DNA of 35,216 bases from a virus: IMG/VR virus record IMGVR_UViG_3300033109_000080; one strand, 5' to 3'. The notes beneath the pieces are model-generated. The model made no database searches. It was not told the origin of the DNA and saw only the letters and a program-made list of their open reading frames with translations. Shown here one piece after another: positions 3,111 to 29,335 of this stretch; position 1 is the stretch's first letter, and each line of letters begins with the position of its first letter. The position numbers were made by a program, and so were the translations under genes.

Positions 3111-4159
3111 AGATCATCCCCGGCCTGGCCTTCGACTTCGAGGTCTTCCTCGTCACCATCGCGACCGGGCTCGCGAAGACGACGGGCACCATCTACGCCT
3201 ACGTGCACCGCAGCTCGAACGGCTACTACCTCTGGGCGGACGCGGCCTGGCACGCGACGCTCCCGACGGGAGCCGACGTGCCGACCGCGACGCACACCAC
3301 GGGCGGCGACTGGAAGCTCACCGCCTCGGCCGGCATCACCGGCGCGCTCGCGACCCCGGGCGAGACGCTCACGTGTTCGATGCGCGACGCTGAGAGCGAG
3401 GCTGCTGCCACCGTCATCGGGGCGTCGCACTCAGCCCAGGTGGACGTCACGACGTCGTCGCGCCTTGCGCCGACGACGGCCGGGCGCACTCTCGACGTGT
3501 CGGCGGGAGGCGAGGCGGGCCTCGACTGGAGCAACATCGGCGCGCCCACTTCGACGCAAGGCCTCACGGGCACCACGATCGGCAACGTCGCCGGCACCGT
3601 CGCGGGCCACGCCGGGCAGGTGACCGTCACCGTGCTCGACTCTCTCGGCGCGCCCCTGGCCGGCGTCCTCGTCACGCTGCGCGCGAGCGGAGTCGTCGTG
3701 TCTGCCGGCACCACCAACGGCAGCGGGGTGGCTGTGCTCTCGCATGCCGGCGGCACCATCACCGTCCTCGGCTTCATCGGAGGCTACTCGATCACCACCG
3801 CGTCTCTGGGCGCACTGGCGGCCGATGCTGTCACGACGGCGGCGCTCACCGCTACCCTGCAGCAGGGCACCGCCGCGGCCGATCCCGGCGCGTGCACGGT
3901 CTACACGACGCTCCGACACCTCGACCTGAGCGTGGCCGCCGGCGTCACGGGGACCTGTCGCGTCGCCAGTCTCCCGGCTGAGCTCTCCGCGAACTTCGTC
4001 GAGGGCGCCTCGAGCTCGGCGACCAGCTCGGGCGCCGGGCTCATCTCGTGGACCGCGCCTCGAGGTGCGCGGGTGGTGGTAGAGATCCCGGGCCACCTGC
4101 CGGCGACGCTGATCACCGTGCCGAACGCGGCCTCGGTGAACCTCTCGACCCTGGTGTGA
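3107..4159 (+). CDS. Hypothetical structural/accessory protein with a carboxypeptidase-regulatory-like (Ig-like beta-sandwich) segment
   Basis: The ATG at 3107 overlaps the Kelch stop (ATGA). The segment GQVTVTVLDSLGAPLAGVLVTLRASGVVVSAGTTNGSGVAVLS looks like a CarboxypepD_reg-type repeat. The protein is rich in Thr/Ala/Gly. Confidence 0.6.
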   Translation: MKIIPGLAFDFEVFLVTIATGLAKTTGTIYAYVHRSSNGYYLWADAAWHATLPTGADVPTATHTTGGDWKLTASAGITGALATPGETLTCSMRDAESEAAATVIGASHSAQVDVTTSSRLAPTTAGRTLDVSAGGEAGLDWSNIGAPTSTQGLTGTTIGNVAGTVAGHAGQVTVTVLDSLGAPLAGVLVTLRASGVVVSAGTTNGSGVAVLSHAGGTITVLGFIGGYSITTASLGALAADAVTTAALTATLQQGTAAADPGACTVYTTLRHLDLSVAAGVTGTCRVASLPAELSANFVEGASSSATSSGAGLISWTAPRGARVVVEIPGHLPATLITVPNAASVNLSTLV

Positions 4160-19074: not shown

Positions 19075-19115
19075 CGAGGACAGCTGGGAAGAGCTCGAGC
19101 GCATCTCGTCCTTGC

Positions 19116-19144
19116 TTGACGGCTGCTCATTGGTGGCGTGGATT
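19116..19144 (+). promoter_or_regulatory. Candidate sigma70-type promoter TTGACG-N17-TGGATT, 6 nt before the ATG at 19151 (a leaderless or near-leaderless transcript)
   Basis: Read directly in a lower-GC stretch. The -10 hexamer is weak (3 of 6). Confidence 0.3.
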
Positions 19145-19150
19145 CTGCGC

Positions 19151-19483
19151 ATGCGACCTCTCGAGATGGCGGTGGTGATGTGCGTGATCAGTGGCTGCGC
19201 TGCCTTGGCCGAAGAGCAGGCTCGGAGGGACGCGGAGCGACGCGAGCAGCTCCTCCGGAATGCCGCCGATTCCCAGGAGCGAGCCCGAAAGCAGAAAGAG
19301 CAGGACGAGCTCAGACGACAGGCATTGGCAGTCGAGTTCGGCGGAGTCGATGCGACCGCAGCTGGGACTTCGACGATCACCGGACAAGCGTTCCTCCGCA
19401 CGCGAGGGGGGGAGGTCAGGACGGCTGCTGGTATGGAGGTGATCATGCTGCTGAAGACGCGCGGCTCTAACTCGCCGACGTAG
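19151..19483 (+). CDS. Lipoprotein (lipobox VISGC) in a lower-GC moron
   Basis: MRPLEMAVVMCVISG|C fits a signal peptide plus lipobox, followed by a charged coiled region. GC is visibly lower than in the flanks. An alternative ATG is at 19166. Confidence 0.6.
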   Translation: MRPLEMAVVMCVISGCAALAEEQARRDAERREQLLRNAADSQERARKQKEQDELRRQALAVEFGGVDATAAGTSTITGQAFLRTRGGEVRTAAGMEVIMLLKTRGSNSPT

Positions 19484-19551
19484 CCGAGCAGCTTCAGCTC
19501 GAGCCAGTCGCCGAAGTCGTAGACGGCTGCGCAGCAGCGGCAGATCTTCAT
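19441..19551 (-). pseudogene. Open-ended zinc-ribbon-like ORF start (MKICRCCAAVYDFGDWLELKLLGYVGE...) lacking a nearby stop; probably a truncated gene remnant
   Basis: The ATG at 19551 overlaps the stop of the upstream minus-strand gene (ATGA). GC3 is high for about 30-37 codons, then the coding signal decays. This frame has no stop until 17470, and it overlaps the 3' end of the lipoprotein gene. Confidence 0.3.
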
Positions 19552-19889
19552 GCGGCCTCCAGCGGGATGACCTCGAGCTCGGCGATGGCGAAGATCTCGG
19601 TGTGCTCCGACCTCTCCCGCGCGGTCCGCTCGAGCGCGATGTAGCGGAACGGGAAGCCGGGCAGGCAGGGGATCTGCACGACGACCCCGCGGCGCCCCTG
19701 ATAGCGGTAGCCGGTCGGATCGCCCGAGTGCCGCCCTCGACGGACGACTCGCACCCGCGTGCCGATATCGAAGCCCAGCGCCGCGACGTTCGCCGCCCTC
19801 ACCGTCTCGCGCTCGGTGCACGCGCGGGTCGCCGCCGCATCCTGCTTGCCGACGTCGATTCCGCCCCAGAAAGGTCCCTTCGCCTTCAT
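19548..19889 (-). CDS. Hypothetical protein (113 aa), the only clear minus-strand gene; candidate lysogeny/immunity-side gene
   Basis: On the minus strand, SD GGGAGAGAAACC precedes the ATG at 19889. It is divergent from the RHH gene across an operator-like region. No DNA-binding motif recognised. Confidence 0.6.
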   Translation of the reverse strand: MKAKGPFWGGIDVGKQDAAATRACTERETVRAANVAALGFDIGTRVRVVRRGRHSGDPTGYRYQGRRGVVVQIPCLPGFPFRYIALERTARERSEHTEIFAIAELEVIPLEAA

Positions 19890-19935
19890 GGTTTCTCTCC
19901 CTCGGGCATCCCGAGAGAAATAATACACGGACTGC

Positions 19936-19970
19936 GTGCCGCTATGCACGTCTTTTGTGCTTGACAGCAC
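19936..19970. promoter_or_regulatory. Two operator-like palindromes GTGC-N6-GCAC (19936-19949 and 19957-19970), centres 21 bp apart
   Basis: Read directly: GTGCcgctatGCAC and GTGCttgacaGCAC. The second one brackets the -35 hexamer of the rightward promoter. Confidence 0.55.
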
Positions 19971-19989
19971 CGGACGCGTGGGCGAGTAT
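19961..19989 (+). promoter_or_regulatory. Candidate promoter TTGACA-N17-GAGTAT, 7 nt upstream of the ATG at 19997 (leaderless RHH mRNA)
   Basis: Perfect -35 hexamer, 17-nt spacer, -10 with 3 of 6 matches. On the opposite strand a TATTAT -10 (complement of 19920-19925) could serve the leftward gene. Confidence 0.45.
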
Positions 19990-19996
19990 CCGGCGC

Positions 19997-20398
19997 ATGT
20001 TGAGCGCAGCCACCGCATCGACTACGAGTGCAGCCGTCCCGACCATCAGGGCGGGCAGGAGGCTGCCGTTCGTGTCGAGGCGTCCGGGTCTGCGCGGTCG
20101 CGGTGCGAAGAGCCGTCTGAACATCACGCTGCCGAAACACCTCCTCGAAGAGGTGGACCGGCTGGTCGATGCTGAGGACGAGGCTTGGTCTCTGCGCGGA
20201 GGCTCGGCGAGCAGCTACGGCCGCAGCGACCTTCTCGAGATGTTCATCGAGTGGGCGATTCCTGAGTGGTACTCGCGCTACGGCGAGCTGCCGCAGAAGT
20301 CGGACCCGCGCCGCCGCGAGTTCATTCGTGGGCTGGCGGAGCAGCATCTCGCCGAGCTGCGCGACGACCTCTTGCGAGAGGTCAACAAGAAGGGCTGA
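19997..20398 (+). CDS. Ribbon-helix-helix (CopG/Arc/MetJ-type) transcriptional regulator
   Basis: SRLNITLPKHLLEEVDRLVD ... RSDLLEMFIEWAI forms a beta-strand/helix/helix RHH pattern. Start chosen at the ATG at 19997 because of the promoter geometry; the ORF track start at 19955 would lie inside the promoter. Confidence 0.65.
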   Translation: MLSAATASTTSAAVPTIRAGRRLPFVSRRPGLRGRGAKSRLNITLPKHLLEEVDRLVDAEDEAWSLRGGSASSYGRSDLLEMFIEWAIPEWYSRYGELPQKSDPRRREFIRGLAEQHLAELRDDLLREVNKKG

Positions 20399-20586
20399 GG
20401 CGGGCCATCAGTGGAGCGTTTGGGAGGGGTCTTGCGGTCGATCTGTCCATGGGTGCTATACGTCCGTTCAGTGGCCCCAACGACAGGGGCCGGGGGCGGT
20501 CTGTATGAGTTGCTGGTGCCGATTCCCACGGCGCGCATGGGGCTGGGAAGTCGAACTCGGTGTGCGGCTGGCACTCGGAGTAGCCG

Positions 20587-20814
20587 ATGACCGTCACCGC
20601 GCTGGAGAACCTCCTCACCCTCGCCGAGACGGCGAAGCTCCTCCGCATCAGCCGGGGAAAGCTCCACGCCCTGGTGCGCGCGGGCGAGCTGAAGGCGGTG
20701 AAGTTCGGCCGCCGCACTCTCTTCCGCGCCGCCAGCGTCGCTGAGTTCGTCGACGCCCACGAGAAGCGGGCCACGCCGGCGCGGGCCCTCGCGCTCATCG
20801 GAGAGAAGCCGTGA
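20587..20814 (+). CDS. Excisionase-family helix-turn-helix DNA-binding protein
   Basis: LLTLAETAKLLRISRGKLHALVRAGELKAVKFGRRTLFRAASVAEFV is the classic excisionase/MerR-like HTH_17 pattern. Confidence 0.78.
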   Translation: MTVTALENLLTLAETAKLLRISRGKLHALVRAGELKAVKFGRRTLFRAASVAEFVDAHEKRATPARALALIGEKP

Positions 20815-21227
20815 AGCCTCGACCGCCCATCAACAAGAAGAGCCTCGCGGGCCGCTGGGTCGTCTCGGAGAACGAGGAGACGTTCGGCTCGAGCCTCTTC
20901 CTCACGAAGGACTCGGCCATCGCGGGGGCCGCGGGCGAGCTCGACCTCGAGCCGGGCGACTCGTTCTTCGTCGCACAGGTGGCGAACTTCGACCGCGTGC
21001 TCAACCTGGGCGACCCGCGCCGGGTGCTCGAGGAGGCGGGTGAGCGTTCCGAGTGCCACGAGTGCGTGTACGACGGGATGGCGAACGCCTTGACGGAGGT
21101 CGAGGGCGCGGCGGACGAGGACCTGAATCGAGTGCTCTCGGCGTGGCTCCGTCGCTGGGGCCTGCATCCGAACCAGCACGGCTACCGCGTCGAGCGCTGC
21201 GAGAAGGCGGAGGTGCCGGTACCATGA
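20811..21227 (+). CDS. Hypothetical protein (138 aa)
   Basis: GTGA overlap with the excisionase-family gene. No motif recognised. Confidence 0.55.
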   Translation: MKPRPPINKKSLAGRWVVSENEETFGSSLFLTKDSAIAGAAGELDLEPGDSFFVAQVANFDRVLNLGDPRRVLEEAGERSECHECVYDGMANALTEVEGAADEDLNRVLSAWLRRWGLHPNQHGYRVERCEKAEVPVP

Positions 21228-21550
21228 AGAGACTCACGCACACGCCGGGGCCGTGGGCCGTCGAGTACGGCCGTCGCGCGAAGTCCGGCGGCCGCACGGT
21301 CCGCGTCATCAGGCCGGGGCCGCTGGGCGGTGGCGCGCTCATCGCCAACGGCATCGTAGGCGGCGGGGACGCGGAATGGATTGAGGGCAACGCGCGTCTC
21401 ATCGCTGCCGCGCCCGACCTGGTCGCGGCGCTCGAGCAGGCGTTCGACGAGCTCCAGGCGGCCGCTGGCGGGCCGCAGGACCAGACTGAAGAAGAGGCCG
21501 CGCTCCTGGCGATGTGCCGCGAGGCGCTCCTGAAGGCGGGGCTTCCGTGA
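21224..21550 (+). CDS. Conserved phage hypothetical protein (THTPGPW ... NARLIAAAPDL pattern)
   Basis: ATGA overlap. The GPW ... eAnArLIAAAPdL motif recurs in small phage early proteins, as far as I recall. Confidence 0.6.
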   Translation: MKRLTHTPGPWAVEYGRRAKSGGRTVRVIRPGPLGGGALIANGIVGGGDAEWIEGNARLIAAAPDLVAALEQAFDELQAAAGGPQDQTEEEAALLAMCREALLKAGLP

Positions 21551-21918
21551 GCCGCCCCGACTTCTTCAACGCGCTCGCGCAGAACCTCGGCGCGCCGGCT
21601 GGGTGGCAGTGGCGCAAGCTCGAGGCGCTCGGTGACGAGCCTGCGGCGGAGCGTGACCGCGCCCGGCAGTTCAGCCAGATGACCGGCTACGTCCACAGCG
21701 GCGCGACCTTCAAGAGCGGCCCGAGGAAGGGCCAGCAGAAGCCGAACAGCCCGGCGCGAGGGACGGAGCGCACGTACGTGTTCCGGATGTCGGAGATCGA
21801 CGCGCTCGCCGCGGCATGGGAGCTGGAAACCGGCCTGTGCTCGCGCTGCGAGGACGGGCGGTTCGGCACGTCGACCTGTCCTGGATGCAACGGCACCGGA
21901 AAGGCGGCCAGGCGATGA
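21547..21918 (+). CDS. Hypothetical protein with a C-terminal DnaJ-like zinc finger (CSRC...CPGCNGTG)
   Basis: GTGA overlap at 21547. CxxC..G...CxGCxGxG is near the C-terminus. Confidence 0.55.
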   Translation: MSRPDFFNALAQNLGAPAGWQWRKLEALGDEPAAERDRARQFSQMTGYVHSGATFKSGPRKGQQKPNSPARGTERTYVFRMSEIDALAAAWELETGLCSRCEDGRFGTSTCPGCNGTGKAARR

Positions 21919-22349
21919 AGGTCAAGCTCTCTGCGTACGAGCGAGCAGTGAATGCGCTGATGCGCACCGACTCTCGGCTGTCGGCGGAGCTCGAGGCGGC
22001 GATCCGGGCCGACATAAAGCGAGATCTGGCCCGGTTCGACTTCGTCGGGCACCTCCACCGTCAGCGCGACTTCAGCGAGCGCACCTTCGGCCCGGGCGAG
22101 CGGTCGGCCGGCGTCATCGACCACATCGAGAAGGAGCTCCGCGAGCTGCGCGAGGCGCCACTCGATCTCGAGGAGTGGATCGACGTCGTCATTCTCGCGC
22201 TCGACGGCGCCTGGCGGGCGGGCCACAGCCCGGAAGAGATCGTCGCGGCGCTGGTCGCGAAGCAGACGAAGAACGAGCGGCGCACCTGGCCTGATTGGCG
22301 CACCGCGGAGCCCGGCAAGTCCATCGAGCACGTTCGAGGTGGCCCGTGA
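21915..22349 (+). CDS. MazG-like dATP/dGTP pyrophosphohydrolase (DUF550-type)
   Basis: RDFSERTFGPGERSAGVIDHIEKELRELREAPLDLEEWIDVVILALDGAWRAGHSPEEIVAALVAKQTKNERRTWPDW matches the DUF550/MazG-like core as I remember it. Confidence 0.7.
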   Translation: MKVKLSAYERAVNALMRTDSRLSAELEAAIRADIKRDLARFDFVGHLHRQRDFSERTFGPGERSAGVIDHIEKELRELREAPLDLEEWIDVVILALDGAWRAGHSPEEIVAALVAKQTKNERRTWPDWRTAEPGKSIEHVRGGP

Positions 22350-22714
22350 GCGACCTCGCCCGCCTGGTGTTGACCGTCGACGAGAACCTCGCCGAGGACA
22401 CGGCCGAGGTCGGCGAGGTGCTGGTCAACGCCGACGACTGGCGGGAGCTCGTCACTCTCGCCCTCGTCGAGCTCGGGCTCGACAAGAAGGTCGTCGCTGC
22501 GGCGCCGAGCGCGAAGGTGCCCGGGCATGCCTCCTGGTGTGGGCTCGAGAAGCCCCACGCCGGCGAGTGCCAGATGGCGGCCACCGTGCGCTCTCAGCTC
22601 GACAACAAGAAGGCCTCTACGTCGCGCGCCCGCCAGCGCAGCGGCTCCAGACCCCGGGCGAGTCCCCCCCGATCCCGCCCGGGGTCTGATGTTCCACCGG
22701 AGGGCGCGGCGTGA
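22346..22714 (+). CDS. Hypothetical protein (122 aa) with a basic, low-complexity C-terminus
   Basis: GTGA overlaps at both ends. Confidence 0.5.
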   Translation: MSDLARLVLTVDENLAEDTAEVGEVLVNADDWRELVTLALVELGLDKKVVAAAPSAKVPGHASWCGLEKPHAGECQMAATVRSQLDNKKASTSRARQRSGSRPRASPPRSRPGSDVPPEGAA

Positions 22715-23058
22715 CTCTCCCTGCCCGCCTCCGCCAGGCGTCCCGCGAGCTCGCCGAGCTGGCCGACGATCTCGAGCGTCAGCTCGTCGAGCGGCGCGCT
22801 CCGGTCGCCACCACCTACGTCGCCGGCGCCGAGGTCTCGGTCGACGAGCTCGAGCTCACCGTTCGTGCCGCGAACATCCTGCAGGCGAACAGCATCCGCA
22901 CGGCGCAGCTCTGCGCCATGCGGCCGGGAGACGTCCTGCGGCTGGGGCGGGCGGGGCCGAAGGTCCTCGAGTCCGTGGAGCACGCCCTCGCGCGGCGAGG
23001 CCTCAAGTTGCGCCCGCGCCTCGGGCGGCCGCCGATGGGTGTCGAGGGGCTCCGGTGA
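22711..23058 (+). CDS. Stand-alone RNA polymerase alpha-subunit C-terminal-domain (alpha-CTD)-like protein with an N-terminal coiled coil
   Basis: VDELELTVRAANILQANSIRTAQLCAMRPGDVLRLGRAGPKVLESVEHALARRGLKL aligns by eye with E. coli alpha-CTD [58 protein letters not shown]. The Arg equivalent to R265 is included. Confidence 0.8.
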   Translation: MTLPARLRQASRELAELADDLERQLVERRAPVATTYVAGAEVSVDELELTVRAANILQANSIRTAQLCAMRPGDVLRLGRAGPKVLESVEHALARRGLKLRPRLGRPPMGVEGLR

Positions 23059-23450
23059 GCGCGCGCACTCGCTTCCAGCCGTGGTTCGCCCGCTCCTTCG
23101 ATGAGCGGTGCGCCGACAGGCCGACGAGGCGGCCGCGGGCCCACGAGCTGAAGTGCTGGCCCACGGCCTTCGAGGACGTGACTCAGGGCCGCAAGCACTA
23201 CGAGGTGCGGTGGGATGATCGCGGCTTCGAGGTGGGCGACTCGCTCATCCTCCGGGAGTGGAGTCCCTACAGCTCCTCTCTGGCCGTGCGCCCGTTCGAC
23301 GGCTTCACCGGCCGGGAGGCGTGGTTCGAGGTGGTCCACAAGACCGAAGGCGGCATGTGGGGTCTGCCCGAGGGACTCTGCGTGCTCGGCATCCGGCGCC
23401 ACGCGACGGCGCTGATTGCTTTGCCGTTGCGCCCGAGGAGTGCTGTGTAG
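23055..23450 (+). CDS. ASCH-fold protein (DUF3850-like)
   Basis: HELKCWPTAFEDVTQGRKHYEVRWDDRGFEVGDSLILREW is the DUF3850/ASCH signature (HeLK..p..F..v..G.K..E.R.nDR.f.vGD.l.L.E). Confidence 0.72.
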   Translation: MSARTRFQPWFARSFDERCADRPTRRPRAHELKCWPTAFEDVTQGRKHYEVRWDDRGFEVGDSLILREWSPYSSSLAVRPFDGFTGREAWFEVVHKTEGGMWGLPEGLCVLGIRRHATALIALPLRPRSAV

Positions 23451-24776
23451 ATGGCCCGCCTCTTCCATCGACCGGGTGACTCCACCTGGTGGCTCGACTT
23501 CACCGACGCGGCCGGGCGTCGGCGTCGCGTGAAGACGGACACCACTTCGAGGCGGGCCGCGGAAGATCTCCTCGCGGAGCTCCGCGCCAACCGCCGGCGG
23601 GAGTCCCTCGGCCTCGAGGCGACCACCAGCTCAGCGATCTCCACCGTCGCCCAGGCCTGGCGCCTCTGGCTCGAGCGGTGGTGCCCCGAGGCGTCCGCGC
23701 CCCGGGAGTGGCGCAGGTACCGGGCGAACATCGAGAAGTCCTGGTTCGGCCAGGAGCGCCTGACGCGCCTCACCGGTGAGCAGCTCGAGCGGTGGTTCGG
23801 CGAGAAGGTGAAGGCCGGCCAGGCGCCCCGCACCGTCAACGGCCACCGCACCATCCTGCGCCGGGTCGTCAACTGCCTCATCCAACGCCGGCTCTTCCGC
23901 GGCCTCAACCCGGTGCGCGAGACGAGGCCCCTGCAGGTCCCTGAGTACGCCTACCAGGTGCTCACCGAGGACGAGCTCCACCGCGTGCTGCCGCACCTGC
24001 CGGGCGAGTGGCGCGACGTCGTCGAGCTCGCCTTCACCGCGGGCCTGCGGCGAGGGGAGATCTACGCCCTCCGGAAGGACCGCGCCGTTCTGGACCTCGA
24101 GCGCGGCATCCTCACCCCGCGCGCGAGCAACGCCCGGCCGATGCCCAAAGGCCGCCGAATCCTCTCCATCCCCCTGACACCGGAGTCGCGGTCCGTGCTC
24201 GAGCGCGCCTGGGAGCGGACGCGTCCGGGCGAGCTGCTCTTCCCGGGCGTCGACGGGCAACTCCGGAGCGAGAACCTGAGGCCCTCGGAAGCCCTCAGGA
24301 GCGCGATGGGCCGCGCGGGGCTGGTCGAGGGCTGGCTGCACACCTGTCGGTGGCGCTGTGGGGTTCAGCAGCGTCACGATGACGAGCAGCAGCGTCGGTG
24401 CCCGAAGTGCGGGCGGCTGCTCTGGCCGAAGGCGCTCGTGCGGCGGGTGCGGTTCCACGACTTGAGGCACTCGACGGCCAACCACCTCCTCGACCGCGGG
24501 GTGCCGCTCGAGGACGTGCAGCTCTACTTGCGGCACTCCACCATCGCGATCACCGCCCACACCTACCGGCACCGCACCGTCGAGGCCCTGCGCAAGGCGG
24601 TCACCTCGCTGAGCCCTGAGCAGCTCGAGCGGCACCTCGACTCGCTCGCGCGCGGGCAGCCGGCGCACGTCCAGGCGCTCCTCCGAGAAACCGCCGCGAA
24701 ACTGGCACTTTTCAGGCACCAGCCCCTTGCACGAGGGGCCCTCAAACCAGCCAAATCCAACCGAAAGGCGAGGTAG
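23451..24776 (+). CDS. int: Tyrosine recombinase / phage integrase with an inserted CxxxC...CxxC zinc ribbon
   Basis: Catalytic signature AFTAGLRRGEI (Arg), FHDLRHSTAN (H-x-x-R), LRHS and AHTYRH (Tyr). The insertion is CRWRCGVQQRHDDEQQRRCPKCG. Lies adjacent to a tRNA-like sequence. Confidence 0.92.
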   Translation: MARLFHRPGDSTWWLDFTDAAGRRRRVKTDTTSRRAAEDLLAELRANRRRESLGLEATTSSAISTVAQAWRLWLERWCPEASAPREWRRYRANIEKSWFGQERLTRLTGEQLERWFGEKVKAGQAPRTVNGHRTILRRVVNCLIQRRLFRGLNPVRETRPLQVPEYAYQVLTEDELHRVLPHLPGEWRDVVELAFTAGLRRGEIYALRKDRAVLDLERGILTPRASNARPMPKGRRILSIPLTPESRSVLERAWERTRPGELLFPGVDGQLRSENLRPSEALRSAMGRAGLVEGWLHTCRWRCGVQQRHDDEQQRRCPKCGRLLWPKALVRRVRFHDLRHSTANHLLDRGVPLEDVQLYLRHSTIAITAHTYRHRTVEALRKAVTSLSPEQLERHLDSLARGQPAHVQALLRETAAKLALFRHQPLARGALKPAKSNRKAR

Positions 24777-24787
24777 AGTCGATGGAT

Positions 24788-24846
24788 GCACGAGTGGCGG
24801 AACTGGCAGACGCAGCGGACTTAAAATCCGCCGCACCGCAGTGTGC
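24788..24846 (+). other. tRNA-Leu(UAA)-like 5' two-thirds (acceptor 5' strand, D arm, anticodon arm, variable arm); no T arm or matching 3' acceptor strand; candidate attP core
   Basis: GCACGAG TG GCGGAACTGGCAGACGC A GCGGA CTTAAAA TCCGC C GCAC CGCAGT GTGC. The D loop has A14, G18 and G19. The anticodon stem is perfect and the loop is C-U-UAA-A-A. Downstream sequence does not fold into a T arm, and CTCGTGC is absent. Begins 12 nt after the int stop. Confidence 0.7.
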
Positions 24847-24955
24847 AGGGCACTGCGCGCGTGTTCACAGACGTGCAACTACGCGCACTGACGGCGGAAT
24901 CTTCAGGGCTCGTCGGTCACCGAAGTGCACCGAGGTCAGGGCCGCGCCCGCAAAG

Positions 24956-28122: not shown

Positions 28123-29097
28123 GCTCGACGCCCTTCACTCTCCTCGTCGGCGATGCCCGTACGCGGCTTCGCCAGCTCGCGGCCGAGTCGGTGCAGTGCT
28201 GCGTCACATCGCCTCCGTACTGGAGAATGCGCGACTACGGGCACCGGCGGCAGGTCGGCCTCGAGAAGTCGCCGGAGGCGTACGTTGCGCGGCTGGTGAC
28301 GGTCTTCGCCGAGGTGCGCCGCGTGCTGCGCTCGGACGGGACGCTCTGGCTCAACGTCGGCGACTCCTACGCGTGCTCGGGCAAAGGCTCGACCGGCAAG
28401 ACCTCCACTCTGACGAATCCCTCTCGCTACGAGGAGGCCTCGCTGCCGGGGCGCTCGAAGACGGGCGAGGGGCTCAAACGCAAGGACCTGGTGGGAATCC
28501 CCTGGATGCTCGCCTTCGCGCTGCGCACTGCTGGCTGGTACCTCCGCGCCGACATCATCTGGCACAAGCCGTCGCCGGTGCCCGAGTCGATTCTCGACCG
28601 GCCGACGAAGGCACACGAGCACGTCTTCCTCTTCTCACGACAGCCGCAGTACCTCTACCGCGCCGAGGCCATCGGCGAGGCCTTCCGAGAACCTCGCTAC
28701 GCCACCGCGGCGAGCATCGGGGCGAAGACCCGCGCTGTGGACCGCGAGTACCTGGAGCGGTCGACCCTCGCGCAACAGCCTCGGCGCGGTTGGGCGAACG
28801 CGCGCGATGTCTGGACGATCGCGACTGAGCCCTTCGCCGGCGCGCACTTCGCTCCGATGCCGACCGAGCTCGCGCGGCGGTGCATCGTCGCCGGAAGCGG
28901 GGGGGGGGCATCTCGTGCTCGACCCTTTCGCCGGTGCCGGCACGACCGGGCTGGTGGCGCTTCGCGAAGGGCGCCGGTTCCTTGGCATCGAACTGAACGC
29001 CGGCTACGCGCGCATCGCCCAGAAGCGCTGCCGAGAGATCACGCTCGGGTTGCCCCTCGACTCGTCCTCATCTGGAGAACTCCGTGACGCCGTGTAG
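28119..29097 (+). pseudogene. Beta-class N4-C/N6-A DNA methyltransferase (SPPY motif IV) interrupted by a +1 frameshift in a G10 tract
   Basis: The N-terminal frame (28119..) has TSPPYW, IIWHKPSPVPES, RPTKAHEHVFLFS and HFAPMPTELARRCIVAGS. Motif I, VLDPFAGAGTTG, continues in the +1 frame (ORF 28807..29097). The frames meet at GGGGGGGGGG (28899-28908); 9 or 12 Gs would restore one ORF. Confidence 0.8.
28899..28908 (+). repeat. Homopolymeric G10 tract at the methyltransferase frameshift point
   Basis: Counted directly from the sequence: gcGGGGGGGGGGca. Confidence 0.9.
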
Positions 29098-29335
29098 CCC
29101 GACGCTGCGGCAGCTCGACTACCTGAGGGCGATCGATCGCGCCTGGTTGGAGCTCGGCTACGCCCCGAGCATCCGCGAGCTCGGTGACACCCTCGGGATC
29201 GGCAGCACCAACGGCGTGGCCGAGGGGCTGAAGGCGCTCGAGCGCCGCGGCTTGGTGACAAAAGCGCGCGGGGTCGCCCGCAGCCTGCGGCTCACCACCC
29301 AGGGCCGGCTCTGGATCACGAAGGAGGCTACCTGA
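29084..29335 (+). CDS. LexA N-terminal DNA-binding-domain-only protein (winged helix; no S24 peptidase domain)
   Basis: LRQLDYLRAIDRAWLELGYAPSIRELGDTLGIGSTNGVAEGLKALERRGLVTKARGVARSLRLT matches the LexA_DNA_bind pattern (LT.rQ..vl.fI......GyPPsvREi......S...v..hL.aLe.kG.i.r....aR.i.l). Only 83 aa long. Confidence 0.75.
   Translation: MTPCSPTLRQLDYLRAIDRAWLELGYAPSIRELGDTLGIGSTNGVAEGLKALERRGLVTKARGVARSLRLTTQGRLWITKEAT

Follow-up and report, generated by a model that had tools for sequence, protein, structure and literature searches.

A compact divergent control region with a putative ribbon-helix-helix-like repressor in a temperate phage probably infecting Myxococcaceae

The virus record IMGVR_UViG_3300033109_000080 of the IMG/VR database (35,216 nucleotides; 'the window' hereafter denotes the whole of this stretch) is a 35-kb phage genome with 70.5% GC. 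Its genes diverge at a gap of 107 bp, 19890–19996, which separates the start codon (19887–19889) of a leftward gene for a protein of 113 amino acids (aa) from the ATG (19997–19999) of a rightward gene for a ribbon-helix-helix (RHH)-like regulator. The explanation that we favour, at somewhat better than even confidence, is that this gap is the phage switch and that the RHH-like protein is autoregulated and probably acts as the maintenance repressor. The window is a temperate phage, with a gene for a tyrosine integrase (int), an excisionase-like (Xis-like) gene and a phage attachment site (attP) that carries a tRNA fragment, and the gap is its single point of transcriptional divergence, in support of the location given for the lysis-lysogeny switch in a first-pass annotation made from the sequence alone. 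The remark made there that every other gene points rightward holds: independent gene calling on two contigs with the same sequence as the window places all other genes between 9548 and 33066 on the plus strand, and the GC content at third codon positions (GC3) is consistently in minus-strand phase for 19501–19920 only. The phase of GC1/GC2 was dropped as a strand caller, being too noisy outside 19501–19920.

The sequence elements first listed for the gap were all confirmed, by reading of the sequence and by a script check (Table 1). The rightward −10 candidate GAGTAT is followed by 7 nt (19990–19996) and the ATG, which is in frame with the open reading frame (ORF) ending at 20398. GAGTAT matches TATAAT at 3/6 positions and the leftward −35 hexamer TGCATA likewise matches at 3/6, and because both promoters are thus weak by consensus, a generic consensus promoter scan reported neither of them at its thresholds. 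The centres of the two palindromes of the gap are 21 bp apart, and together with the intervening GCAC-N7-GTGC they form four half-sites spaced by 10, 11 and 10 bp (centres at 19937.5, 19947.5, 19958.5 and 19968.5). GTGC-N6-GCAC occurs three times in the window versus 1.24 expected, with two of the three in the gap. An inverted-repeat pair with identical arm and spacer arose in 0.3–0.6% of shuffles of the gap, and in 0.02–0.04% when helical phasing was also demanded, the test being post hoc; that the elements of the gap were made by chance is unlikely. In the leftward leader, the repeat at 19901–19915 extends, as RNA, to an 11-bp stem (−16.5 kcal/mol, z = −2.6), which, if transcribed, would pair with the leftward Shine-Dalgarno sequence.

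The geometry of the half-sites, which fit consecutive major grooves along a single face of the DNA, is that of the RHH dimer-of-dimers Arc and CopG, and we expect dimers of the RHH-like protein to bind the four GTGC half-sites, one helical turn apart. As palindromes 1 and 2 sit on the leftward and rightward −35 regions, respectively (the latter enclosing the −35 of the regulator's own promoter, the former covering the leftward −35 and spacer), one and the same RHH-like protein would repress both promoters and regulate its own synthesis.

Homologues of the tyrosine integrase (P0006–P0038, 54–66% identity), by which the related phages are defined here, led to nine related phage or prophage contigs within L124–L134, with 65–70% GC and seven distinct switch types; L123 was left out as the window's own sequence. 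Their common layout consists of a leftward early operon, a divergent gap (79–287 nt to the called rightward start), an RHH-like gene (called at 102–130 aa), a spacer of 175–236 nt, an HTH_17 gene and int. The leftward early operon encodes RecT/YqaJ, or PDDEXK/AAA_24/ParB, or ERF, with a P22_Y8K6-like gene in L124 and L125. The window protein is homologous to the genes upstream of HTH_17-int in all nine contigs (E-values from 1.5e-12 to 3.8e-5), with identities of 23–30%. No other regulator is conserved at the switch position. In every relative the gene for this protein comes first in the order RHH, HTH_17, int and is directed away from the early operon for recombination/replication. The nine contigs also have, at the same position, divergent promoters and repeated palindromes like those initially described for the window. 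In L124, the leftward −10 equivalent is CATTAT, followed by a TCTCCCG tract similar to that of the window, and two GC-rich hairpins occupy the equivalent place in the leftward leader.

Repeated inverted motifs lie over or beside the −35 elements in every locus and differ from phage to phage. L124 has GCACCAtTGGTGC twice, in two symmetric promoters (AGTCAA...TTGACT) that each hold one copy in their spacer, L125 and L126 have TGTAC/GTACA sites, L131 and L133 have TAGTACCA...TGGTACTA, and L127 and L134 have AGATACT/CAGTATC. In L125, the site TGTAC-cgtcaa-GTACA holds the leftward −35 inside its 6-nt spacer, just as palindrome 2 of the window encloses TTGACA. Because the motifs vary by phage alongside proteins with only 23–30% identity to that of the window, as would be expected of heteroimmune repressors, we take the RHH-like protein to be the probable ligand, each reading the repeated sites of its own phage.

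The first-pass annotation had also proposed that the mRNA of the regulator is leaderless. When the loci were aligned on the first in-frame ATG, a −35-like hexamer (TTGACA, TTGACT, TTGACG, TTGAAG or TTGCAA) and a −10-like hexamer appeared at fixed positions, the latter ending 6–8 nt before the ATG. An unbiased promoter scan, in which the best −35/−10 pair on the strand was taken and the −10 was required to carry A and T at positions 2 and 6, respectively, led to an in-frame ATG 6–7 nt downstream of the best pair in 7/8 loci; the sole failure was L124, whose −10 (TACCTA) is without the final T. L133 and L134 were fetched after the rule had been stated and both obey it exactly, the gene caller's start being that very ATG. 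Since the geometry is present in nine of the ten loci, two of these examined only after the rule was fixed, the leaderless layout is, on the evidence of promoter position, a trait of the family. L133 is 77% identical to L131 and has Val where the called internal start of L131 is Met, for which reason the upstream ATG is probably the real start there. On this reading, the genes as called would be 12–21 codons too short in four of the seven distinct relatives. Judged by the same geometry, both divergent genes appear to be leaderless in L125, L126 (at the second Met), L127, L131 and L134, where the first leftward gene begins 6–7 nt after a −10-like hexamer. In the window, the rightward promoter would start transcription at or beside ATG 19997 and give a leaderless or near-leaderless mRNA.

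The alignment of the family reveals a basic N-terminal tail, a G-I-S/T-L-P strand, a helix A and a helix B of the form S-x-S-D/E-x-L-E-x-A-V, followed by a conserved C-terminal part (G-P/E-L-P...R-K...L-A-E). This is the pattern of RHH proteins, with sub-threshold support from hidden Markov models (HMMs), and the protein is accordingly termed RHH-like here; HMM support for the original designation as an RHH regulator is weak (see below). A single-sequence AlphaFold2 (AF2) model, of low confidence, has helices at residues 47–66, 76–95 and 104–132 and a disordered tail (1–42), and as these helices fit the pattern of the alignment we counted them in favour of an RHH fold. A profile search of the PDB gave nothing significant, and no significant similarity to Arc was found with hhalign. 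For both switch proteins, k-mer searches returned self-matches only and PADLOC and NCBIfam returned nothing; neither of them matched HTH_3 or Peptidase_S24, and no match to these was found among the other window proteins scanned.

Being the only conserved regulator at this position and heading the unit of RHH, Xis-like and int genes that faces away from the early operon, the RHH-like protein is probably the analogue of CI, that is, the repressor that would maintain the prophage, rather than a Cro-like protein. The maintenance repressors of 186, P2, ICEBs1 and BPs-type elements occupy the same position relative to int. The original assignment of the RHH protein as Cro/Arc-like is, in consequence of its place at the conserved head of RHH, HTH_17 and int, which is that of a CI-type repressor, probably the reverse of the actual arrangement.

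A number of observations weigh against the reading just given. With respect to the protein, the RHH_5 match of the window member (E = 9e-4, 19.4 bits) falls below the 26-bit cut-off, HicB_lk_antitox is matched at E = 0.009, and the window member alone matches RHH models (1/8 family members; 0/7 relatives). Alignment to CopG with hhalign is in the expected register and is not significant (E = 0.045, probability 1%), and the AF2 monomer forms no strand (mean predicted local distance difference test score, pLDDT, 57). With respect to the promoters, the sole leftward −35 candidate (TGCATA, 19948–19943, at 17-nt spacing) is poor. With respect to the start codon, an AGGAGG at 20057–20062 stands 9 nt before an in-frame GTG at 20072, and AGG, which accounts for 7% of Arg codons elsewhere, encodes each of the first four Arg residues of the long form; AGG-AGG occurs in 0/70 other Arg-Arg pairs. 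On both counts, the first 25 codons may be an untranslated leader in this phage. AGGAGG sites on the plus strand precede the start codon of an ORF of 50 codons or more in 10 of 27 cases, several of these being called gene starts, in comparison with 0/18 on the minus strand, and for the window gene the gene caller picked the 108-aa form. The leaderless claim consequently stands as a matter of conserved geometry, while in the window itself the GTG with its Shine-Dalgarno sequence competes with the ATG: promoter geometry marks the probable transcription start, and ATG 19997, GTG 20072 (additionally or instead) or both may be used by the window phage.

The genes around the switch also speak against a CI-like role in the window. 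Unlike the relatives, the window has P22_Y8K6-like, dATP/dGTP pyrophosphohydrolase and DUF3850 genes downstream of the RHH-like and Xis-like genes on the same strand, so that early lytic transcription could here begin at the rightward promoter, and the RHH protein could be Cro-like. Early-type genes that run leftward in the relatives (L124 7373–9083, L125 7568–9069) are found rightward at 20811–23450 in the window, in the same internal order, and seven such genes lie between the Xis-like gene and int; a block of the early operon is relocated and inverted in the window phage. This rearrangement is the main reason for doubt about the role of the RHH-like protein in this particular phage. Finally, inverted GTGC/GCAC pairs are enriched at attP and before the Xis-like gene, which makes another ligand possible.

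The gene order of the window also suits the model of the first-pass annotation, in which lysogens would make the 113-aa protein as a maintenance repressor of a new type and the RHH protein would be the first, Cro/Arc-like product of early lytic rightward transcription. We regard this model as unlikely. In the window, all other genes, including those of early type, xis and int, lie downstream of the RHH-like gene on the plus strand, and the 113-aa gene alone could be expressed independently leftward; its promoter, with a good −10 and a poor −35, resembles activator-dependent promoters, and the weak similarities of the protein are to SH3-like barrels (FeoA, eL21 and CarS, E 0.02–1.5), a fold that includes some DNA-binding domains. 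However, the 113-aa protein is absent from all nine contigs that share the RHH, Xis and Int unit, in which the recombination/replication operon begins at the equivalent position. The absence of a recognisable helix-turn-helix (HTH) in this protein, noted at first pass, is confirmed: it gave no match above noise and no DNA-binding signature in four libraries (Pfam, PHROGs, NCBIfam and PADLOC), and its AF2 model was unusable (pLDDT 39). An exhaustive HMMER search of 1.84 billion representatives recovered one true homologue, P0003 (105 aa, 55% identity); a second hit, P0004 (1000 aa), was discarded as a low-complexity false match. P0003 lies on L002, a 593-bp groundwater metagenome contig (1–593), inside a co-directional operon in which it is translationally coupled on both sides, its GTG overlapping the stop of an upstream Cys-rich gene (GTGA) and its stop overlapping the downstream start (TGATG). 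Nothing, therefore, marks the 113-aa protein as a maintenance factor, given its absence from the relatives and a lone homologue inside a co-directional operon.

Marginally less probable again is that the ligand of the GTGC palindromes is the Xis-like HTH_17 protein or the arm-binding domain of the integrase, acting at both attP and the switch as Cox of P2 and Apl of 186 do, with the RHH-like protein recognising something else. Seven of the 40 inverted GTGC/GCAC pairs (N0–12) of the window lie in three non-coding stretches that make up 1.26% of the sequence, an enrichment of 14-fold, and three of them are in attP; these counts are, however, inflated by the lower GC of non-coding DNA. Among the relatives, GTGCA/TGCAC was observed 15 times in attP regions versus 2.2 expected and is modestly enriched in the switch gaps (7 vs 2.5, P = 0.015). 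But the extended attP motif GTGCA is present in only 1/4 of the window switch half-sites, and the attP spacings are irregular (N3, N6 and N8) as against the regular 10-11-10 array of the switch. Furthermore, the switch repeats vary by phage, as do the divergent RHH-like proteins and unlike the HTH_17 proteins, the good conservation of which (54–70% identity) had favoured them as ligands. The last alternative is improbable, namely that the palindromes are no operators and arose by chance or act at the RNA level, for instance palindrome 1 with a T run terminating read-through from the late operon, with control exerted elsewhere, for example by the LexA-domain protein at 29084–29335: a terminator scan does flag GCGTGC-cgctat-GCACGT followed by CTTTTGT on the plus strand, the palindrome statistics are post hoc and both the window and its closest relative, L128, encode a LexA_DNA_bind-only protein, but terminator-like sites are not enriched (3 vs 1.9 in shuffles), the RNA fold of 19930–19975 is unremarkable (z = −1.5), the LexA-like gene was flagged in one related locus only, and repeated palindromes lie over −35 elements in all relatives.

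The preferred reading, in which the RHH-like protein represses both promoters and would maintain the prophage, invites comparison with several known systems. Back-to-back promoters in a short gap, with operators in helical register over −35/−10 elements, are likewise found in OR of lambda (PRM/PR, cI/cro), which is also the single control point of a temperate phage, and where cI transcribed from PRM begins at its start codon, as is predicted for the rightward transcript of the window. Promoter-like hexamers and palindromes in this lambda-type arrangement between divergent genes were found in the window and in all relatives. Lambda differs in its HTH and S24 peptidase repressor, neither domain of which occurs in the window switch proteins, and in having three operators rather than two palindromes with four half-sites. 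Here, moreover, there is no recognisable Cro-type partner, the leftward gene is no recognisable regulator, the regulator is linked to xis-int, and in several relatives both divergent genes are leaderless by geometry. The immI region of P22 (mnt, arc-ant, with the RHH repressors Arc and Mnt) is similar in that a small protein of RHH or, here, RHH-like type is encoded by the first gene at divergent promoters and both promoters are probably repressed from a palindromic operator by a dimer of dimers. In contrast to P22, the window has neither a downstream antirepressor gene nor a second divergent RHH gene, the leftward protein having no RHH match; immI is an accessory immunity region whereas the gap is the sole divergent control region of the window phage, and Arc and Mnt are without the basic tail of about 40 aa and the extra C-terminal helix of the window protein. 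The region would follow the logic of lambda OR with a protein that resembles P22 Arc and Mnt in kind, but it is a member of neither type, as it lacks an HTH-S24 repressor, an antirepressor gene and a second RHH gene.

In the repressor-integrase operons cI-int of coliphage 186, P2 C-int, ICEBs1 immR-immA-int and rep-int of mycobacteriophage BPs, the regulator gene has the orientation of int, directly precedes it and points away from the early genes, as in the relatives of the window; here a Xis-like gene lies between regulator and int, and the promoters are back-to-back and not face-to-face as in P2 and 186. F55 of the archaeal temperate virus SSV1 is an RHH protein proposed to keep the carrier or lysogenic state by way of repeated sites in early promoters and in its own. 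SSV1, a fusellovirus, has other promoters, no sequence relationship to the window and no link of the regulator to xis-int. The autoregulated plasmid and toxin-antitoxin proteins CopG, omega, ParD and HicB show the strand/helix/helix signature that the alignment suggests for the window protein; weak HMM similarity (RHH_5, HicB_lk_antitox) and a palindrome over the protein's own −35 are further points in common, but the window protein is longer, sits in a phage-switch context and has no toxin or replication partner gene.

Table 1. Features of the divergent control region, of its surroundings in the window and of equivalent regions in related contigs
Feature	Position	Strand	Description
113-aa gene	19548–19889	−	GC3 0.83–0.93 in frame; GGGAGAG 6 nt before ATG; first in leftward operon
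Second leftward ORF, 5' part	19380–19551 (lower bound approximate)	−	ATG 19551 and the stop codon of the 113-aa gene share ATGA
Imperfect palindrome	19893–19923	−	core CTCGGG-cat-CCCGAG, CTCGGGCATCCCGAG, at 19901–19915; spans leftward Shine-Dalgarno sequence and predicted leftward transcription start
Leftward −10 candidate	19920–19925	−	TATTAT (ATAATA on +), 5/6
Palindrome 1	19936–19949	.	GTGCCGCTATGCAC = GTGC-cgctat-GCAC, 5-bp arms CGTGC/GCACG; overlies leftward −35 and spacer
Palindrome 2	19957–19970	.	GTGCTTGACAGCAC = GTGC-TTGACA-GCAC; its 6-nt spacer is the rightward −35 hexamer
Rightward promoter (candidate)	19961–19989	+	TTGACA 19961–19966, 17-nt spacer, GAGTAT 19984–19989; top-scoring on the strand in the unbiased scan
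RHH-like regulator gene	19997–20398	+	133 aa from ATG 19997; 108 aa from alternative GTG 20072
Spacer between RHH-like and Xis-like genes	20399–20586	+	hairpin GGCCCC-aacgaca-GGGGCC 20473–20491; short ORF from ATG 20505
Xis-like HTH_17 gene	20587–20814	+	PF12728 9.4e-14, TIGR01764 5e-11
Tyrosine integrase gene	23451–24776	+	PF00589
attP core	24788–24831	+	equals positions 1–44 of Myxococcus/Corallococcus tRNA-Leu(UAA)
Equivalent spacers in relatives	L124 9608–9782; L125 9550–9779; L127 9552–9779; L128 489–693; L129 4253–4488; L132 850–1076		
Gaps with two back-to-back promoters, leaderless by geometry	L125 9070–9156; L126 9083–9161; L127 9081–9200; L131 1912–1996; L134 686–782		gap size 79–120 bp

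The second ORF of the leftward operon shares 50% identity over 24 aa with the second leftward gene of L124, which encodes a 61-aa zinc ribbon (CxCC...CxxC). It has no stop until 17470, overlaps the convergent plus-strand ORF that ends at 19483 at the end of the lysis genes, and was not called by the gene caller; it is probably what truncation has left of a small zinc-ribbon gene. In the relatives, the leftward operon opens with variable, Cys-rich genes, and none of their products resembles the 113-aa protein. The 113-aa gene is best explained as a near-orphan, specific to its lineage, at the head of an early operon that extends far in the relatives and would be truncated in the window. A Cys-type small ORF adjoins the gene of 113-aa type both in L002 and in the window, in opposite order, with ATGA as the overlap in the window; a match of the small ORF that follows the 113-aa gene to the gene upstream of the L002 homologue was rejected, as no alignment was found. 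No gene was called at 19075–19547 (473 nt). A plausible plus-strand ORF at 19151–19483 (110 aa) has a lipobox-like VISGC and a charged coiled region and is spanin- or lipoprotein-like; it shares third codon positions with the minus-strand remnant ORF from 19551.

The Xis-like protein of the window is 57–65% identical to the products of the genes that precede int in the relatives. The spacer upstream of it is conserved, and in most loci it contains a block TGTCAG-N5/6-CTGCTACGAC and then a 6-bp hairpin with compensatory changes, the arms among the relatives being ACGGTC/GACCGT, ACGGCT/AGCCGT, GCGGGT/ACCCGC and GCAGTC/GACTGC. No U tract was found after the spacer hairpin, which could serve as a terminator or attenuator between the regulator and xis-int. 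A short conserved ORF of some 26 codons (M-x-x-W-R/K-F-P-R-G-..-E-E-V-L...) reaches the HTH_17 start in the window (20505–20586), L124, L125, L127, L128, L129 and L132. It is always one nt behind the HTH_17 frame and its frame remains open well into HTH_17 (first stop in the window at 20744), an arrangement that could couple or gate the translation of Xis or yield a +1 frameshift fusion. A sigma-54 promoter in the TGTCAG...CTGCTACGAC block was rejected by eye, as there is no GG at −24 and the spacing is off by one, and a GTGC-N5-GCAC at 20562 was treated as chance, having no palindromic counterpart in the relatives.

Apart from the genes discussed above, the window encodes a large terminase, structural and lysis-like proteins, three DNA methylases, the integrase, the excisionase-family HTH_17 protein and a protein with only a LexA DNA-binding domain. 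The latter (82–83 aa, no peptidase domain) is found in the window at 29084–29335 and in L128, the relative with the closest integrase, at 3329–3577; its gene sits in the rightward block after attP. A 115-aa protein encoded at 22711–23058 significantly matches the alpha-subunit C-terminal domain of RNA polymerase (PF03118, E = 1.3e-5, above the cut-off) and may serve the phage as a decoy or to modulate transcription in the host.

The int/xis content and the fragment of tRNA-Leu(UAA) that attP shares with Myxococcus and Corallococcus genomes indicate that the phage is temperate and that its host is probably a member of the Myxococcaceae. The whole 44-nt match was found in 12 of the 120 genomes that share a conserved 36-nt core, all 12 being Myxococcus or Corallococcus. 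In SRR32497121, two contigs identical to the window both break at 24804–24833, inside the tRNA match, and integration into tRNA-Leu(UAA) would best explain these data. In the 130 nt examined after int (L124–L132; window 24788–24926), the 5' part of a tRNA, and not its 3' part, directly follows int in the window and its relatives: Leu-UAA in the window, L128 and L129/L130, Leu-UAG in L125/L126 and Arg-UCG in L131/L132. L127 adjoins a complete tRNA-Leu(taa), where it is integrated, and in L124, an exception, int is followed by what appears to be the reverse complement of the 3' part of a tRNA. After the tRNA fragment, TGTGCAC...GTTCA motifs are conserved in most loci and are probably arm-type sites for Int or Xis. 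No integrated relatives were found beside tRNA-Leu in the 120 genomes checked.

Relatives were sparse in the other collections searched. Rfam gave zero matches across the window. In a collection of cultured phages, no DNA or protein relative of the switch was found, and as only the pyrophosphohydrolase gene and a distant terminase were matched, the phage is unrelated to Mx8 or Mx9 at the level of that search. Scans of IMG/VR with the 113-aa protein, the RHH-like protein, two neighbouring genes and two RHH alignments returned no close relative of the phage, one metagenome scan returned no relative of the switch proteins, and a genome scan with the integrase found no relative.

To our knowledge, the regulation of myxophages is almost unstudied, and no myxophage switch of this kind is described in the literature searched. 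Backed now by the comparative evidence, the finding is, as far as genome comparison goes, real, and the mechanism would be nothing out of the ordinary. We tentatively suggest, at rather less than even confidence, that the window and its relatives form an undescribed family of temperate myxobacterial phages, in which an RHH protein made from a leaderless mRNA would take the place of an HTH protein of the CI kind and head a unit of RHH, Xis-like and integrase genes, in which several members would carry two leaderless promoters with their operators in 79–121 bp, and in which a hairpin and a short ORF would gate excision. If this is true, Myxococcus and Corallococcus genetics would gain a compact switch that is experimentally tractable and made up of roughly 110 bp and a single small protein, together with a set of natural heteroimmune variants with different operators. 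It would likewise be a clear case of gene callers misplacing the starts of leaderless genes, and would lengthen the list of phages in which an RHH protein is the main repressor.

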